From: Dehalococcoidia bacterium
GTDB lineage: Bacteria > Chloroflexota > Dehalococcoidia > Plut-88900
DNA length: 64,000 bases
Assembly (NCBI GenBank): GCA_965207225.1
Contig: CBDBLV010000004.1
Span: 448,001 to 512,000 of the forward strand
Direction of reading: 5' to 3'
Shown: one piece after another, positions 7,122-64,000 of the stretch
Position numbering within the stretch: the first letter of the stretch is position 1
Layout: each line of letters opens with the position of its first letter
Translations under genes and position numbers: made by a program
Notes under the pieces: generated by a model
Database searches by the model: none
What the model was told of the DNA's origin: nothing
Seen by the model: the letters and a program-made list of their open reading frames with translations, nothing else

Positions 7122-7859
7122 CTAGTTGGATGCTCCGTACCCGTAGTCCTCTATCTGACCGTCCCTCATCCGGATGGTGCGATGGGTCAGTGCGGCCAGG
7201 GCCTCGGAGTGCGTCACCAGTACGAAGGTCTGCCGGTTCTGCTTGTTCAGGGAGAGAAGGAGGTCCATGATCTCGTCGGAGTTCTCCGAGTCCAGGTTCC
7301 CCGTGGGCTCGTCCCCCCACACTATCTCGGGCTGGTTTACCAGTGAACGGGCTATGGCAACTCTCTGCTGCTGTCCGCCGGAAAGCTCCGTCGGGTAGTG
7401 ATCGGTCCACTCCTGCAGGTTGACCAGGCCCAACGCCTCCCTCGCCCTCTCACGGGCCTCCCTGGCTTTCGTACCGGACACCAGCAGTGGCATCTCTACG
7501 TTTTCCAACGCGTTCAGCACCGGCAGCAGGTTGAAGGCCTGGAAAACGTAGCCCATCTTGGTGGCCCGGTAGCGGGTCTTCTGGTTATCGGACATCTTCG
7601 CCAGGTCCCGACCCGCAATCTTGATTACGCCGCCGTTGATCGAGTCCAGCCCCGACAGGCAGTTGAGCAGAGTTGTCTTCCCGCATCCGCTCGGGCCCAT
7701 TATCGCCACCATCTCTCCCCGCTCCACCTTCAGGTCCACCCCGTGCAGGGCATTCACCTTAACCCTTCCGGTATCGTAAATTTTGACTACTTCGGAGGCC
7801 TCTATAATCGGTCCGGAATCGGAGCTGTTGTCAGAATGCTGCATGGGTAACTGAGCCAT
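7122..7859 (-). CDS. ABC transporter ATP-binding protein (LolD/MacB-type)
   Basis: Walker A GPSGCGKT, LSGGQQQR signature, DEPTGNLD. Confidence 0.93.
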   Translation of the reverse strand: MAQLPMQHSDNSSDSGPIIEASEVVKIYDTGRVKVNALHGVDLKVERGEMVAIMGPSGCGKTTLLNCLSGLDSINGGVIKIAGRDLAKMSDNQKTRYRATKMGYVFQAFNLLPVLNALENVEMPLLVSGTKAREARERAREALGLVNLQEWTDHYPTELSGGQQQRVAIARSLVNQPEIVWGDEPTGNLDSENSDEIMDLLLSLNKQNRQTFVLVTHSEALAALTHRTIRMRDGQIEDYGYGASN

Positions 7860-8050: not shown

Positions 8051-8233
8051 CAGTATTGAACTAGAGGCAGAGGTTGGAGCTTCTGCTCCAACCTCTGCCT
8101 CTGTTCATCTTTCCCCCTCTCCCTTAAAGGCCCTAAGAGCCTGCCCCGAGTCCCTCGAGGGGGAGAGGGGGATCAAGGGGGTGAGGGTTCCCCTATGGGG
8201 TCGAGGGGCATCCCTCCAAAATTGTACATTTGC
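8051..8233 (+). repeat. composite palindromic repeat, copy 1 (long stem + CCCCTCTCCC hairpin + nested 24-bp insert + tail)
   Basis: TAGAGGCAGAGGTTGGAGC-TTCT-GCTCCAACCTCTGCCTCTG. Collinear with 60223-60405 through the shared GTACATTTGC end. Confidence 0.85.
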
Positions 8234-8258
8234 ACTACCTGAACCCGCGTGCTATACT
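8230..8258 (+). promoter_or_regulatory. sigma70-like promoter
   Basis: TTGCAC-17 bp-TATACT with extended -10 TG. AAGGAG (8311) and ATG (8321) follow. Confidence 0.55.
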
Positions 8259-8533
8259 ACACCCCAGGCCACCGACCCCATACCTCGGCGCCCATCACAA
8301 TGCAGGATCAAAGGAGTACCATGAGCCGCATAAGCCTTCACAGGCCCCGTCTCAGCCGAGCGGCATCCCGCCGCCCGGCCCCCGGCACGCGCCTCTTCCT
8401 TGGCTCCTTTCCCCACCCCGTCCTGCACCTCAACACCCACAACAAGCGCTGCCCAAAGGACCAACGCCTTGGCCTTCGCAGCGATCAATCACCGCCCCGC
8501 CCTCAATACTGCCTGGTCCCCGTGACCGGTAAC

Positions 8534-8962
8534 GGAAGGTTCCTAAACTCAAATCGGCTAGCTCTACTTCGTGGCCAACACCGTAGAATCAGCGCCCCCG
8601 TTCCAGGTCGAATCTACGTAGCCGGCATAGACCTCGCCGGCGAATCGGAACAACCCGGAGAAGTCCGTCTCCAGGGCTTTAAGCCCACCCAAGACTCCAC
8701 CGTCGTAACTATCGGCGAACTCCAAATGCTTGATGACGGCTTCGGCTCCAAACTGCCCTCCCTCACCGTCGTCGAGCGCCATTGGTGGACGGGGAAGCCC
8801 CACACCGAGACCTTCTCGGGCCTCGTCCACCTTCTCAAAAACGTCTGGGGCTGCCGCAGGGTGGTCGTCGACGCCATTGGCACTGGCGTAGGCGTAGCCG
8901 CCTTCCTGCCTAAGACCATAGGACCTTCCATCGTAGTTCCCTTCACCTTCACAGCCCAGACC
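8534..8962 (+). pseudogene. phage terminase large subunit C-terminal (RNase H-like nuclease) fragment
   Basis: IYVAGIDLAG...DSTVVTIG...RRVVVDAIGTGVGVAAFL...VVPFTFT resembles the terminase nuclease domain. No ATPase domain is present, and the frame runs on into repeat DNA. Confidence 0.6.
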
Positions 8963-8974
8963 ATTTGCCCCCCC

Positions 8975-9205
8975 ACCCCAATCGGGAATCCATCCCGAGG
9001 GGTGGAGCGGCCGGCCTCCGTAAGGACTACCGGCGGGTCGCCCACCCCAGGGGCGGGGCCGCTCACCCTGAAGCCCCTCGAAGAGCCTGCCCCGAGTCCC
9101 TCGAGGGGGTCGAGCGGGGGGGTGGCCCACACCCGGCTGTCACGTCTCGCCAGTCACCCCCTCCCCCGACTTGCCATGTCATCCCGAGGCCCCGCGAGGG
9201 ATCTC
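8975..9205 (+). repeat. cluster of short REP-like modules
   Basis: ATCGGGAATCCATCCC (cf. 59525), CCGCTCACCCTGA...GAGCGG with nested AGCCTGCCCCGAG insert (9084-9107), and TGTCATCCCGAGGCCCCGCGAGGGATCTC (9177-9205). Confidence 0.7.
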
Positions 9206-9414
9206 AAGGGCCCGTCTCAAGACATGGCATTCACCTCCGTTCACCCCCATCCAACTTCAGGGAGTGTAAGGGGTACAGCCTCCCGTTCCCTGAAAGAATG
9301 GGCCAGGATGAGGCTGATCCCCTCCCATCCTGCCAGTACCAAACTAGAGGGAGCAGTTGGCGCAGGCGCGCCAACTGCTCCCTCTGTTTTTATCTCCCCC
9401 TCTCCCTCAATGGC

Positions 9415-10683
9415 TGTATAGACCGGGGAGAAGGGTAACAGTTGTTCGGGGAGATAGGTAACACATTTCCTACTTACTTAGATCTATGGTAGCAATGGGT
9501 TGTACGGAGAAGAAGACTTTCCACGTGCCGTCTTTGGACCCGGGTCTAAGGGCGACACACTTTCTTCGGAAGGCTTTCCCCACCTTAAAGGTTCTGCCCT
9601 TGAACCATATGCGGCCGTTGACGTCGACCTTGCGCACCTGGTCATTGGTGTCGTACTCGATGGCAGGCAGGACCTCGGGGAAGGGCCGGGGGCTGGGGGT
9701 GTATCGGCTGGAGGGGGTATTGAGGTCCAGGGCATGGTGAGGACGCTGGAGGTTGTAGAAGTCTCTCCAGGTGTCGAAGCTGCCCTGGCAGTGGTGCAGG
9801 TCTGTGTAGATGCTTCCCTGGAGCAGTTCGCTCTTGAGGGACTTGTGGAAGCGTTCAAGCTTGCCGAGAGTCTGGGGGTGGTGGGGTCTGCTGTGGATCA
9901 CCCTGACTCCCAGTTGCAGCAACCAGACGGTCAAGGGCGTGAAGGGATGGTAGAGGTCGTGGCCCCAGGGGGCGCCGTTGTCTACCAGCATAGTGACGGG
10001 CATGCCGTAACGGCGGAATACAGAGGTGAGGTGGCCACGGACCGTGGGAGTCTTCTCATCTGGGCAAGCCCTTACAGCCAGGGAGAACCTGGAGTGATCA
10101 TCGAGGATCGTCAGAGGGTGACATCTTCCACCACTGGACATGGGTATATGTCCCTTGAAGTCCATCTGCCAAAGGTCGTTGGGCCGGGGGTGCTCAAAGC
10201 GGCGGTAGGGCTTGTGCTTGAGGCTCTGGGCCGGCTCTATAAGTCCATGTCGACTGAGGATGGCTGTGACGGTGCTCTTGGCCGGTACACCGCCGTACCC
10301 TCTGTCCTTGAGCATCTTGGCCAGCACATGACCCCCCTTGGTGGGGAACTCCCTTCGAAGGTCTATTACCAGTTGCTCCATATCGGCGCTGGTGCGGTTC
10401 GGCGAGTGATGGGGACACTTGGAAAGGTCTTCCAGACTCCCCTTACCCCCTTCCAGGTATCGTCTCAGCCACTTGTAGCCGGTCTTACGGCTGATCCCGC
10501 TGCGCAGACACAGCTCACTCATGTTCACACCCTCGGACTGGGCCAGGACCACAAACTCTTCCCGTTGAGACATGACCGTTCCAACCTTCCATGGCATAGA
10601 AACCCTCCTCTTACAGAATCGCTATGCCTAATGGTGTAACCTATGTCTCCGAACATGTGTAACCTATGTCCCCGGTCTATACA
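9415..10683 (-). mobile_element. IS481-family insertion sequence, 1269 bp, copy 1
   Basis: Terminal IRs TGTATAGACCGGGGA / TCCCCGGTCTATACA, subterminal repeated GGT(A/T)ACA motifs, 5-bp TSD ATGGC (9410-9414, 10684-10688). Confidence 0.95.
9470..10597 (-). CDS. IS481 family DDE transposase
   Basis: N-terminal HTH (GISRKTGYKWLRRY), LWQMDFKG, DDHSRF, VDNG, HPQTLGKLERFH. Confidence 0.95.
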   Translation of the reverse strand: MPWKVGTVMSQREEFVVLAQSEGVNMSELCLRSGISRKTGYKWLRRYLEGGKGSLEDLSKCPHHSPNRTSADMEQLVIDLRREFPTKGGHVLAKMLKDRGYGGVPAKSTVTAILSRHGLIEPAQSLKHKPYRRFEHPRPNDLWQMDFKGHIPMSSGGRCHPLTILDDHSRFSLAVRACPDEKTPTVRGHLTSVFRRYGMPVTMLVDNGAPWGHDLYHPFTPLTVWLLQLGVRVIHSRPHHPQTLGKLERFHKSLKSELLQGSIYTDLHHCQGSFDTWRDFYNLQRPHHALDLNTPSSRYTPSPRPFPEVLPAIEYDTNDQVRKVDVNGRIWFKGRTFKVGKAFRRKCVALRPGSKDGTWKVFFSVQPIATIDLSK

Positions 10684-10773
10684 ATGGCCCTGAGGGAGAG
10701 GGGGATAAAGGGGGAGAGGGTTCCCCTCCGTCCCCTGCGACACGCGAAATCCCCAGAAATCCCTTTAGGCGTC

Positions 10774-55377: not shown

Positions 55378-55511
55378 ATCCCTCCTGAATAATCTCGCCA
55401 TCCATTGCCGCGCACACTTCCCACCCCCCCAGTATTGAACTAGAGGCAGGCGCATGGGCAAAGCTCATGTGCCTGCCTCTGTTCTTCGCTCCCCCTCTCC
55501 CTTACAGGCCC

Positions 55512-56780
55512 TGTATAGACCGGGGAGAAGGGTAACAGTTGTTCGGGGAGATAGGTAACACATTTCCTACTTACTTAGATCTATGGTAGCAATGGGTTGT
55601 ACGGAGAAGAAGACTTTCCACGTGCCGTCTTTGGACCCGGGTCTAAGGGCGACACACTTTCTTCGGAAGGCTTTCCCCACCTTAAAGGTTCTGCCCTTGA
55701 ACCATATGCGGCCGTTGACGTCGACCTTGCGCACCTGGTCATTGGTGTCGTACTCGATGGCAGGCAGGACCTCGGGGAAGGGCCGGGGGCTGGGGGTGTA
55801 TCGGCTGGAGGGGGTATTGAGGTCCAGGGCATGGTGAGGACGCTGGAGGTTGTAGAAGTCTCTCCAGGTGTCGAAGCTGCCCTGGCAGTGGTGCAGGTCT
55901 GTGTAGATGCTTCCCTGGAGCAGTTCGCTCTTGAGGGACTTGTGGAAGCGTTCAAGCTTGCCGAGAGTCTGGGGGTGGTGGGGTCTGCTGTGGATCACCC
56001 TGACTCCCAGTTGCAGCAACCAGACGGTCAAGGGCGTGAAGGGATGGTAGAGGTCGTGGCCCCAGGGGGCGCCGTTGTCTACCAGCATAGTGACGGGCAT
56101 GCCGTAACGGCGGAATACAGAGGTGAGGTGGCCACGGACCGTGGGAGTCTTCTCATCTGGGCAAGCCCTTACAGCCAGGGAGAACCTGGAGTGATCATCG
56201 AGGATCGTCAGAGGGTGACATCTTCCACCACTGGACATGGGTATATGTCCCTTGAAGTCCATCTGCCAAAGGTCGTTGGGCCGGGGGTGCTCAAAGCGGC
56301 GGTAGGGCTTGTGCTTGAGGCTCTGGGCCGGCTCTATAAGTCCATGTCGACTGAGGATGGCTGTGACGGTGCTCTTGGCCGGTACACCGCCGTACCCTCT
56401 GTCCTTGAGCATCTTGGCCAGCACATGACCCCCCTTGGTGGGGAACTCCCTTCGAAGGTCTATTACCAGTTGCTCCATATCGGCGCTGGTGCGGTTCGGC
56501 GAGTGATGGGGACACTTGGAAAGGTCTTCCAGACTCCCCTTACCCCCTTCCAGGTATCGTCTCAGCCACTTGTAGCCGGTCTTACGGCTGATCCCGCTGC
56601 GCAGACACAGCTCACTCATGTTCACACCCTCGGACTGGGCCAGGACCACAAACTCTTCCCGTTGAGACATGACCGTTCCAACCTTCCATGGCATAGAAAC
56701 CCTCCTCTTACAGAATCGCTATGCCTAATGGTGTAACCTATGTCTCCGAACATGTGTAACCTATGTCCCCGGTCTATACA
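55512..56780 (-). mobile_element. IS481-family insertion sequence, 1269 bp, copy 2
   Basis: Same length, IRs and transposase as 9415-10683; 5-bp TSD GGCCC (55507-55511, 56781-56785). Confidence 0.95.
55567..56694 (-). CDS. IS481 family DDE transposase
   Basis: Protein identical to 9470-10597. Confidence 0.95.
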   Translation of the reverse strand: MPWKVGTVMSQREEFVVLAQSEGVNMSELCLRSGISRKTGYKWLRRYLEGGKGSLEDLSKCPHHSPNRTSADMEQLVIDLRREFPTKGGHVLAKMLKDRGYGGVPAKSTVTAILSRHGLIEPAQSLKHKPYRRFEHPRPNDLWQMDFKGHIPMSSGGRCHPLTILDDHSRFSLAVRACPDEKTPTVRGHLTSVFRRYGMPVTMLVDNGAPWGHDLYHPFTPLTVWLLQLGVRVIHSRPHHPQTLGKLERFHKSLKSELLQGSIYTDLHHCQGSFDTWRDFYNLQRPHHALDLNTPSSRYTPSPRPFPEVLPAIEYDTNDQVRKVDVNGRIWFKGRTFKVGKAFRRKCVALRPGSKDGTWKVFFSVQPIATIDLSK

Positions 56781-56973
56781 GGCCCTAAGGGAGAGGGGGA
56801 TAAAGGGGGAGAGGGTTCCCCTCCGCCGCTGGAAATGCAACCCCTCTTCCCTGTAATCATGTCAGCGAATTACCTGGCATCCACAATTCCAACGCCCCGC
56901 AATGAACTTGGCGTAATGTACAATCAGAGGAAGCTCCATGAGGGAGGTTGGGAATACATCCCAGCACAACACC

Positions 56974-59514: not shown

Positions 59515-60587
59515 CCCGACTCCCATCGGGAACCCATCCCCAGGGGCAGGGGTTCCGTTCGTCCTGAGCGGAATCGAAGAGCCTGCCCCGAGTCCCTAGA
59601 GGGGGAGAGGGGGACCAAGGGGGTGAGGGCTCCCTCCCCAGACGGAGGGGCCGCTCATGCTGAGGTCACTCGAAATATGAGCGGGGGGCGGCCCGCGCAT
59701 TGCTCAACTATCGCCTTGCCCTACCACCAACCCGCGCCCCTCCTTTTCCATTCCGATGCCCCGCGAGGAATCTCAAACGCCTTTCACTAAACCCACCCTG
59801 TTCCTTACCTCTCCCATCCTTCCATCGCACCCCCCTTGGTAACGAATTAACAGAAATGCTGCCTAGCAGCATTTCTGATAATTCAATAAAACAGGGCGGG
59901 CGGGTGGGACTCCTATTATTCCCGATGGGTCGGGGAAAGGGTCCTCTCTTTCCTTTCCACCCCCCCGACCCGGGCCTCATCCCTTCCTTCTCCCTCAAAG
60001 TACTGAACTGGAGGCAGCTGTCATTCCGATGCCCCGCGAGGAATCTGGGGCGGGGCGCCTCCATCCCCGGTACTGAGATAGAGGCGGAGGTTGGCGCATC
60101 AAAGCCAGCCTCCGCCTTTGTTCTTCTCTCCCTCCACCGTAGGGGTGCCCCTCGCGGGTACCCTGCCCGCCACCCACGCCAAGACTTGCATCGCCCCAAA
60201 ACCGAGCCATCCCCCTCCTCACCAGTACTGAACTAGAGGCAGGCGTGGGTGCGTTGCACCCACGCCTGCCTCTGCTCTTCTTTCCCCCTCTCCCTTATAG
60301 GCCCTAAGAGCCTGCCCCGTACCCCAATACGGGGGAGAGGGGGACCAAGGGGGAGAGGGTTCCCTTGGGGGGCTGGGGGGTATTCCCCCAAAGCCGTACA
60401 TTTGCTCTTGACACAGCTGTCCGACCGTACTATCATACCCTGCGTCCGATCGAACGCTAACTCACATAAGCAAAGGAGGAACCAAAAACCTAAGGGAAGC
60501 CCCCGAGACCCGACACCGAGGACTCAACACCCTAGCCCATCCCAATACCTCTCCCCTCTCTTGTAGGGGCGACCGGCCAATCGCCCT
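59515..60587 (+). repeat. dense cluster of REP-like and composite palindromic repeats
   Basis: Nested insert 59580, CCGCTCATGCTGA..GAGCGG 59651, CATTCCG repeats 59749/60022, long stems 60068 and 60223, GTAG-hairpins 60139 and 60563. Confidence 0.85.
60408..60436 (+). promoter_or_regulatory. near-consensus sigma70 promoter with no cognate ORF
   Basis: TTGACA-17 bp-TATCAT. Confidence 0.65.

Positions 60588-62740: not shown

Positions 62741-64000
<1,260 letters not shown>

Follow-up and report, generated by a model that had tools for sequence, protein, structure and literature searches.

Three-block repeats of the BoxC, PIT or triplex-motif type are known in Escherichia coli and in more than 260 genomes. 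They have been catalogued since the 1990s, now in hundreds of genomes, and are linked to local genome instability, with no known function or partner. In the available part of Holder et al. (2015; PMC4666352), the search rule allows loops of 1–6 nt between the blocks, Table 1 gives 23 such sequences in MG1655, the motif forms a triplex in vitro, nuclear magnetic resonance measurements were made with the aim of excluding quadruplex folding of the E. coli version, and no transposase was found near the motifs. Insertion sequences (ISs) that home to another kind of intergenic repeat, the repetitive extragenic palindromes (REPs), are better known: the accessible text of a 2006 survey (PMC1525189) lists REP-targeting members of IS3, IS110, IS4, IS256 and IS5 without mentioning IS481, names IS1397 and IS621 as targeting REPs, and attributes the specificity of IS1397/ISKpn1 to the transposase itself. 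The available part of a 2024 study (PMC11708052) describes an IS481-family element sitting in REPs of Pseudomonas fluorescens SBW25, and in that of a 2026 survey of IS niches (PMC13548323) IS481 is cited only for its closeness to flanking genes. Here, we analyse two copies of an IS481-family element in a 64,000-nt stretch of a Dehalococcoidia bacterium (contig CBDBLV010000004.1, positions 448,001 to 512,000; "the window" denotes this whole stretch). Both copies interrupt BoxC-type repeats, and a census of relatives points to a clade whose transposase probably directs insertion to the dyad of such repeats.

IS1397 and ISKpn1 (IS3 family) resemble this element in having a DDE (Asp-Asp-Glu) transposase and a short target-site duplication (TSD) placed centrally in a palindrome that is common between genes, as far as the available descriptions go. 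They differ in inserting into the loop region of REPs (also called palindromic units, PUs), whereas the present element belongs to IS481, has one open reading frame (ORF) without a frameshift and uses a BoxC-type target; its specificity is, moreover, common to a clade spanning several phyla. The SBW25 element is also of the IS481 family and about 1.3 kb long, but the accessible text gives a Pseudomonas REP/REPIN target and a 4-bp TSD, and the comparison is one of description, not of kinship. This published case contradicts the original prediction, made from the window's letters alone, that REP targeting is little characterised for IS481; what it said of IS1397 and IS621 agrees with the survey as far as its text is accessible. 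IS621, ISPpu9 and ISPpu10 (IS110 family) share REP-specific, safe-harbour insertion in the descriptions available. They use, however, unrelated DEDD recombinases without TSD-type DDE chemistry, with guidance by an RNA. Thus, REP-targeting ISs and one IS481-REP case were already known, and the pairing of an IS481 clade with BoxC-type repeats is new; no literature link of any IS to BoxC, PIT or triplex motifs was found in open-access full text.

The two occupied sites comprise the following features:

9396–9409, plus strand: left arm of the copy-1 target, CCCCCTCTCCCTCA, consisting of the C-block CCCCCTCTCCC (9396–9406) and TCA
9410–9414, no strand: left TSD of copy 1, ATGGC, present only once in the empty homologue L009
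9415–10683, minus strand: IS481-family IS, copy 1, with terminal inverted repeats (IRs) at 9415–9429 and 10669–10683; ends TGTATAGACCGGGGA ... TCCCCGGTCTATACA
9470–10597, minus strand: transposase of copy 1, 375 aa, with N-terminal helix-turn-helix (HTH) domains, DDE/RNase-H core and C-terminal beta-barrel
10684–10688, no strand: right TSD of copy 1, ATGGC, followed by CC before the right arm
10691–10704, plus strand: right arm of the copy-1 target, TGAGGGAGAGGGGG, consisting of TGA and G-block 1 GGGAGAGGGGG (10694–10704)
10710–10720, plus strand: G-block 2 at copy 1, GGGGGAGAGGG, the exact mirror of G-block 1 and third block of the triplex-type motif
55491–55504, plus strand: left arm of the copy-2 target, CCCCCTCTCCCTTA, consisting of the C-block and TTA, with CA next
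55507–55511, no strand: left TSD of copy 2, GGCCC, read from the sequence
55512–56780, minus strand: IS copy 2, identical to copy 1, with its transposase at 55567–56694 (minus strand)
56781–56785, no strand: right TSD of copy 2, GGCCC, read from the sequence
56786–56815, plus strand: right arm of TAA and G-block 1 (TAAGGGAGAGGGGG, 56786–56799), spacer ATAAA, and G-block 2 (56805–56815)

The two ISs, each 1,269 bp long, are 100% identical base for base and are bounded by perfect 15-bp terminal IRs (15 of 15 positions matching). Within the window, the 15-mer of the IR is confined to the four IS ends, with one occurrence at each (0 of 100 shuffles gave four), and a pair of subterminal GGGGAsAwAGGTwACAC-like repeats lies at every end. 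IS481 elements have terminal IRs starting with TGT, a length of approximately 1–1.3 kb and a short TSD, a layout that the element fits (15/15 IR, 1,269 bp, 5-bp TSD). Its transposase scored 272.1 bits against the NCBIfam equivalog NF033577 (IS481; cutoff 224, E 5.7e-81), while the other NCBIfam models (IS3, IS21, IS630, ISNCY) all remained below their cutoffs (IS3: 105 vs 160). Pfam matches were rve, rve_3, HTH_32 and LZ_Tnp_IS481, the IS481 leucine zipper. Unlike in IS3, the transposase is encoded by a single 375-aa ORF without programmed frameshift, and relatives align from residue 1 to 373–375. The protein cluster of the transposase counts 13 members on a single 2.08-Mb contig. The element belongs to the IS481 family, as had been proposed.

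Removal of the IS and one TSD restores a palindrome at each site, CCCCCTCTCCCTCA-ATGGCCC-TGAGGGAGAGGGGG at copy 1 and CCCCCTCTCCCTTA-CAGGCCC-TAAGGGAGAGGGGG at copy 2. Both ISs lie in the 7-nt centre of a palindrome with 14-bp arms, and the TSDs occupy loop positions 1–5 (ATGGC) and 3–7 (GGCCC), respectively. The four repeats of the window offer about 28 loop positions in 64,000, corresponding to a chance of about 4e-4 per insertion. Outside the shared repeat the flanks of the two copies differ, and the hairpins upstream of the two sites are unlike each other. The related Dehalococcoidia genome OZ241876 contains two uninterrupted homologues of the copy-1 site (loci L006 and L009, 8625–8870, minus strand), both of which align without break over the window junction 9414|10684. 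L009 has the identical CCCTCA-ATGGCCC-TGAGGG with a single ATGGC, and so shares with the copy-1 site both its loop and the unusual TCA/TGA at the top of its stem. Because the TSDs and the outer flanks differ and an empty homologous site exists, the two window insertions are separate transposition events and not the outcome of a segmental duplication or conversion. The restored palindromes, the 2-nt TSD offset and the independence of the events were thus rightly predicted.

By its sequence, the target is a BoxC/PIT/triplex-motif three-block repeat rather than a generic REP; of the "REP-like hairpin" originally proposed, the palindromic repeat stands and the REP does not. Both copies show a C-block CCCCCTCTCCC, a complementary G-block GGGAGAGGGGG and a mirror G-block GGGGGAGAGGG. 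Block order and the core words CCCTCTCCC, GGGAGAGGG and GGG(T/A)GAGGG are those of the BoxC/PIT/TMECO repeats in the available part of PMC4666352. The window version differs from these in its 11-nt blocks and its 13-nt first spacer (TTA + 7 + TAA, with 3+3 paired); the second spacer has 5 nt. This first spacer breaks the published 1–6-nt loop rule, whereas the short-type targets of relatives fit it (spacers of 0–5 nt) and agree in sequence with Table 1 of that paper. It is for these short-type targets that sequence likeness to BoxC is established: the 51-nt uninterrupted target used in the E. coli search came from a relative (L033, 9412–9462) and matched 5,402 of 5,426 complete E. coli genomes with 85–91% identity, at a median of 5 places each. 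One example, between mrcB and hrpB, reads CCCCTCTCCCttgaGGGAGAGGGttaGGGTGAGGG. An Rfam gathering scan of the whole window returned a partial 16S rRNA only and no family for the repeat. The G blocks at 10694–10720 and 56789–56815 give at least four runs of three or more G with short spacers, and also fit a G-quadruplex pattern.

To place these two sites among others, relatives were sought by a genome scan, which gave at least 540; the best 80 were kept, forming 77 loci, with a top match of 82% identity. IS termini were located by an anchored search for TGT...ACA ends, and the empty sites were then rebuilt. The census comprises 77 insertions with both ends, 75 of them from 25 other genomes and two from the window. 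Four copies with one unrecognisable end (L003, L044, L076 and the second copy in L042) were left out of the counts, as were L067 (no ends at the locus edge), a partial edge match in L030 and two L062 rows, which are the same DNA as L056. The visible flank of the uncounted L003, L044 and L076 (the last a Desulfurivibrio) is still a C-block context. TSDs of at least 4 bp were present in 59 of the 77 (50 of 5 bp, 9 of 6 bp). Forty-two of the 77 insertions lie between an exact CCCTCTCC on the left, within 22 nt, and an exact GGAGAGGG on the right, compared with 17 among 20,000 sites of 5 nt placed at random in this DNA (Fisher 8e-94). Similarly, 47 of the 77 lie in an inverted repeat with a stem of at least 8 and a loop of at most 9, vs 492 of 20,000 random sites (Fisher 2e-54). 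This flank comparison of relatives' copies, which the original prediction had proposed as a check, came out in favour of targeting.

In a maximum-likelihood tree, the window protein falls into a core clade of 27 sequences (support 100/99) that contains all relatives of at least 62% identity. Of the core-clade insertions, 42/52 occupy full three-block motifs and 47/52 have at least one exact arm; the remaining five are in a mini-hairpin described below (L021, L023), in degenerate versions (L042, L045) or apart from any such repeat (L025). Each of the 11 copies in OZ241876 that have a TSD repeats one and the same loop AGGCC, within differing outer flanks. The IS stands in either orientation relative to the asymmetric repeat (21 vs 25, binomial p 0.66). 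The two window copies, with both transposase genes on the minus strand, do share one orientation, as predicted, but given the relatives this is therefore chance in a sample of two. Distant relatives are also flanked by these blocks (Acidobacteriota L068 and L070, Candidatus Thiodiazotropha L072). Unoccupied repeats are common, with 59 matches to CCCTCTCC-N0-12-GGAGAGGG in 1.6 Mb of the same genomes and 68 distinct unoccupied contexts with the wider N0-16 pattern; the OZ241876 flanks hold six simple unoccupied repeats of the window type. Altogether, the distribution of genomic insertions shows a strong clade-wide preference for the repeat dyad, in either orientation and with a 5-bp, sometimes 6-bp, stagger.

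Some copies depart from this picture in their junctions. L030, L072, L019, L022, L040, L049 and L008 have no TSD, and the half-repeats on their two sides differ or point in opposite directions; perfect inverted repeats of 22–25 bp, made up of two blocks, border L030 and L072. From their flanks, the TSD-less copies look like products of IS-IS recombination or, in L008, of an adjacent deletion. In L027 (about 9891–9920), it is the second spacer, separating the two G blocks, that holds the insertion, with the TSD AGGGCT.

Two named elements, each about 49% identical over the full length, extend the comparison: ISEc19 of E. coli K-12 (yagA) and ISRm20 of Sinorhizobium meliloti. The left end of ISEc19, read in the F128 copy of the K-12 yagA region (L079, 380–600), adjoins half a BoxC, CCCCTCTCCCCTTTGGGG, and about 35 nt further out stands an intact BoxC, no. 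3 of the TMECO sequences in the available table of PMC4666352. ISEc19 is, however, a single fixed locus, present in 358 of the 5,426 E. coli genomes and lacking its right end next to yagB, and so counts as n=1. ISRm20 (L080, pSymB) sits at the centre of a palindrome with 9-bp arms, ATCCCTGTG-CTCGT-CACAGGGAT, and its TSD is the 5-nt loop CTCGT, but the arms are unrelated in sequence to those of BoxC type. Two other relatives likewise sit in palindromes with unrelated arms (L021, CCCCGTA/TACGGGG; L077, TCCCCCTTT/AAAGGGGGA). Within this part of the IS481 family, insertion at palindrome centres may be more widespread and involve other arm sequences.

The position of the TSD within the target depends on the repeat subtype. 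In long-stem repeats of the window type, its midpoint falls at the dyad, with an offset of 0 in OZ241876 and of +/-1 in the window. In short-loop repeats, it begins in the loop and extends 3–5 nt into G-block 1, with an offset of +3.2 +/- 1.5 (n=20) that is always toward the third-block side; accordingly, the predicted insertion in the loop applies to the window copies, while in short-loop repeats the TSD overlaps the G arm. Distances were taken at the 34 sites with a TSD and both blocks among 46 single-orientation three-block sites. The TSD centre was within 2.3 +/- 2.1 nt of the midpoint between the blocks, and the gap between C-block and TSD varied least (3.3 +/- 2.4 nt), compared with -1.4 +/- 4.4 nt to G-block 1 and 14.7 +/- 6.1 nt to G-block 2. 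The farther G-run half-site starts 3–5 bp outside the TSD in 25 of 44 core-clade sites with a TSD. Since the third block is also present in 55 of 68 unoccupied hairpins, comparison with these is uninformative on third-block dependence.

A more distant lineage, CAXXWW01 (57% identity, 14 copies), separates symmetry from hairpin formation. Good hairpins were found at only 2 of its 14 sites. An outward-read G-run motif, however, is present within 25 nt in 23 of 28 flanks (controls: 1,675 of 10,000) and on both sides at 9 of 14 sites (controls: 117 of 5,000). G-run symmetry without hairpin potential favours, as far as flanking sequences can tell, the reading of duplex DNA over a hairpin requirement, and it tells against the structure-guided transposon originally envisaged.

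The predicted structure of the transposase is in line with this. An AlphaFold model built on 30 relatives (mean predicted local distance difference test score, pLDDT, 78.7) has helical domains at the N-terminus, a core resembling RNase H and, at 320–372, a C-terminal beta domain of six strands that is modelled with confidence. D146, D206 and E248 are invariant in the 30 relatives and are placed by the model on beta-1, after beta-4 and on a helix, respectively; they are candidates for the DDE triad on the RNase-H fold. The closest matches of the model in PDB are IstA of IS21 (E 5.7e-17), TnsB, MuA and retroviral integrases, which have the layout of HTH, RNase-H core and beta-barrel in common with it. 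IstA, TnsB, MuA and retroviral integrases all integrate into duplex targets, and we count the common layout in favour of duplex reading. An extra domain as the cause of targeting is unsupported, as the non-targeted Cupriavidus copy aligns over residues 1–372. Mimicry of the IS's own end-binding repeats by the target was likewise rejected, since lineages with GGGTTGATGGGTAAC (L026 and others) and with GGGGACATAGGTTAC use the same arms.

Taken together, we consider it probable that an active transposase of this IS481 clade directs insertion to the dyad of BoxC/PIT/triplex-motif repeats by reading half-sites in duplex DNA. A two-fold symmetric transposase complex would read two inverted G-run/C-run half-sites flanking the cut sites, either by sequence or by groove shape, and would join the IS to duplex DNA by ordinary DDE strand transfer, at positions staggered by 5 bp, as IstA, MuA and the integrases join their DNA to duplex targets. 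The "hairpin loop" would then be merely the centre of a duplex palindrome. As the repeats are intergenic and numerous, they would provide a harmless landing pad for the element. Several points weigh against this proposal. A perfectly symmetric reader does not predict the shift of about 3 bp in short-loop repeats, and a TSD of at least 4 bp is missing from 18 of the 77. No such context surrounds L025, several CAXXWW01 copies or L081, a Cupriavidus plasmid copy located in an apparent coding sequence. The palindromes with unrelated arms (L021, ISRm20, L077) fit a structural or symmetry-only rule equally well, the motif is known to form a triplex, and the evidence consists throughout of surviving genomic insertions.

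Several of these same points would suit a complex that recognises a non-B structure, be it a cruciform or hairpin or an intrastrand triplex/H-DNA with a kinked junction, and inserts at or beside it, a possibility that we take seriously but regard as unlikely. In Watson-Crick folding the empty site forms a strong hairpin as single-stranded DNA (-17.8 kcal/mol, z -5.2), targets with unrelated arms are still palindromic, and the 3-bp shift to the third-block side suggests that the third block matters. A connection between Tn7 and triplex-prone DNA was reportedly made by Rao and Craig in 2000. A preference of Tn7 for triplex-prone DNA appears in the available part of PMC2886061, as does triplex formation by the repeat in vitro in that of PMC4666352. 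Where a nested mini-element is present the repeat adopts another fold, in which AGGC of the loop is paired, and 0 of 5 such copies are used. On the other hand, DDE strand transfer, by established chemistry, acts on both strands, here 5 bp apart, which a single-stranded loop cannot supply. Further, inverted G-runs that lack hairpin potential serve as targets in the CAXXWW01 lineage, and the arm CCCTCTCC is conserved across phyla and repeat subtypes instead of varying freely.

Two further explanations do without a transposase that chooses the repeat. The IS might spread among repeats by homologous recombination or gene conversion via the arms, or the arms might travel with the IS in a larger element. 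Near-identical arms and downstream blocks between copies would fit this, as would the eight core-clade copies without TSD and with mismatched half-sites (e.g., L030, L019, L022, L040, L049; the outer-lineage L072 is alike), which indicate that IS-IS recombination does occur. As a general account it is nevertheless very improbable, given that the window TSDs differ and are 2 nt apart, that the IS occurs in both orientations relative to an asymmetric repeat, and that uninterrupted repeats and an empty homologous site exist. Least probable of all, to a degree that we would almost dismiss it, is random insertion with survivors only in neutral intergenic repeats. All observed copies are indeed survivors and the repeats are intergenic, but selection cannot explain why, in one genome, 11 of 11 copies with a TSD share exactly the same 5 nt within a 7-nt loop, nor can it yield 42/77 vs 17/20,000, when most intergenic DNA differs from the repeat. 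Precise positions, differing junctions, both orientations and empty sites thus make survivor bias and conversion fit poorly.

If the proposed duplex-reading transposase clade does home to BoxC-type repeats, it would give these repeats their first specific interacting protein and a concrete source for some of their instability. It would also extend repeat-targeted safe-harbour insertion to IS481 across Chloroflexota, Acidobacteriota and Proteobacteria. The long-standing question of how a one-protein DDE transposase reads its target, whether by sequence, symmetry or non-B structure, becomes testable on a compact target with natural variants. A bolder version, in which the clade is guided to its landing sites by the non-B structure of the repeats, be it an intrastrand triplex or an H-DNA junction, seems to us improbable from the present sequence comparisons. 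Were it true, no earlier natural insertion sequence would have shown such a specialisation for DNA that forms triplexes; IS activity, including the IS-IS rearrangements at TSD-less copies, would explain part of the so far unexplained genome instability near the motifs, and the joint spread of repeat and IS across phyla might be explained as well.

The remaining repeats of the window are unoccupied or partial and carry a nested mini-element:

8113–8187, plus strand: unoccupied repeat with a 22-nt nested mini-hairpin (8138–8159) between CCCTAAG and G-block 1
60284–60359, plus strand: unoccupied repeat with a nested mini-hairpin (60309–60331)
59580–59629, plus strand: partial repeat with mini-hairpin (59580–59601), G-block 1 and G-block 2, without C-block

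The mini-hairpin, AGCCTGCCCCG...CGGGG, is 22–23 nt long and displaces the right arm by 22–23 bp in both unoccupied copies; when the single strand is folded, the mini-hairpin base-pairs with AGGC of the loop. A simple empty repeat without it is absent from the 64-kb window. Counting the window and the OZ241876 flanks, the mini-element is present in 0/14 occupied vs 5/11 unoccupied repeats (Fisher p 0.009), in a sample centred on IS copies and with three of the five carriers clustered at one locus and hence not independent. The proposed blocking of target use by the mini-element is thus weakly supported by these counts and, as a reading of sequence distribution, suggestive only. In other genomes, the same mini-hairpin is found in the second spacer of the repeat, and in L021 (TSD ATACG) and L023 it is itself the insertion site. 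It also occurs at varying repeat positions in several Chloroflexota genomes (e.g., L026, about 7424–7450; L021, about 9888–9915), and looks like a separate tiny dispersed element. An origin as an excision footprint was rejected, there being no likeness to the IS ends by eye.

The target palindrome is a module within a larger, composite repeat, intergenic and about 150 nt long, of which the window has four copies and one partial. Its order is CCAGTAyyrAACTAGAGG, a hairpin with a 19-bp stem and T-rich tail, the palindrome, a 5-nt spacer and the mirror G block; the G-block pair reads GGGAGAGGGGG ATAAA GGGGGAGAGGG, the second exactly mirroring the first. The hairpin modules are:

9345–9386, plus strand: variable GC-rich hairpin with 19-bp stem and T-rich tail, terminator-like, found by terminator scan; first module of the composite repeat at copy 1
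55441–55481, plus strand: variable terminator-like hairpin of the second occupied repeat, with G-T pairs on the plus strand only
8062–8103 and about 60236–60274: 19-bp-stem hairpins before the unoccupied repeats

The base of the stem is conserved (TAGAGG...CCTCTG), while its interior varies among the four copies with compensating changes. The G-T pairs confined to the plus strand at 55441–55481 suggest, from base pairing, that the hairpin would act in RNA read from that strand. Repeats in OZ241876 are flanked by this module too.

At both L006 and L009 of OZ241876 (8720–9915), an empty repeat stands about 1.2 kb from an occupied one, and the segment between them resembles window 8160–8500 plus 9155–9414; a larger repeated unit may surround these sites. 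In the window, the ORF 8249–9421 looks real in its middle part only (8560–9000, plus strand) and may be a fragment of a gene, its end lying immediately ahead of the copy-1 repeat. Finally, a partial bacterial 16S rRNA gene (model positions 1–1199) lies at 62741–64000 and is cut by the end of the window.

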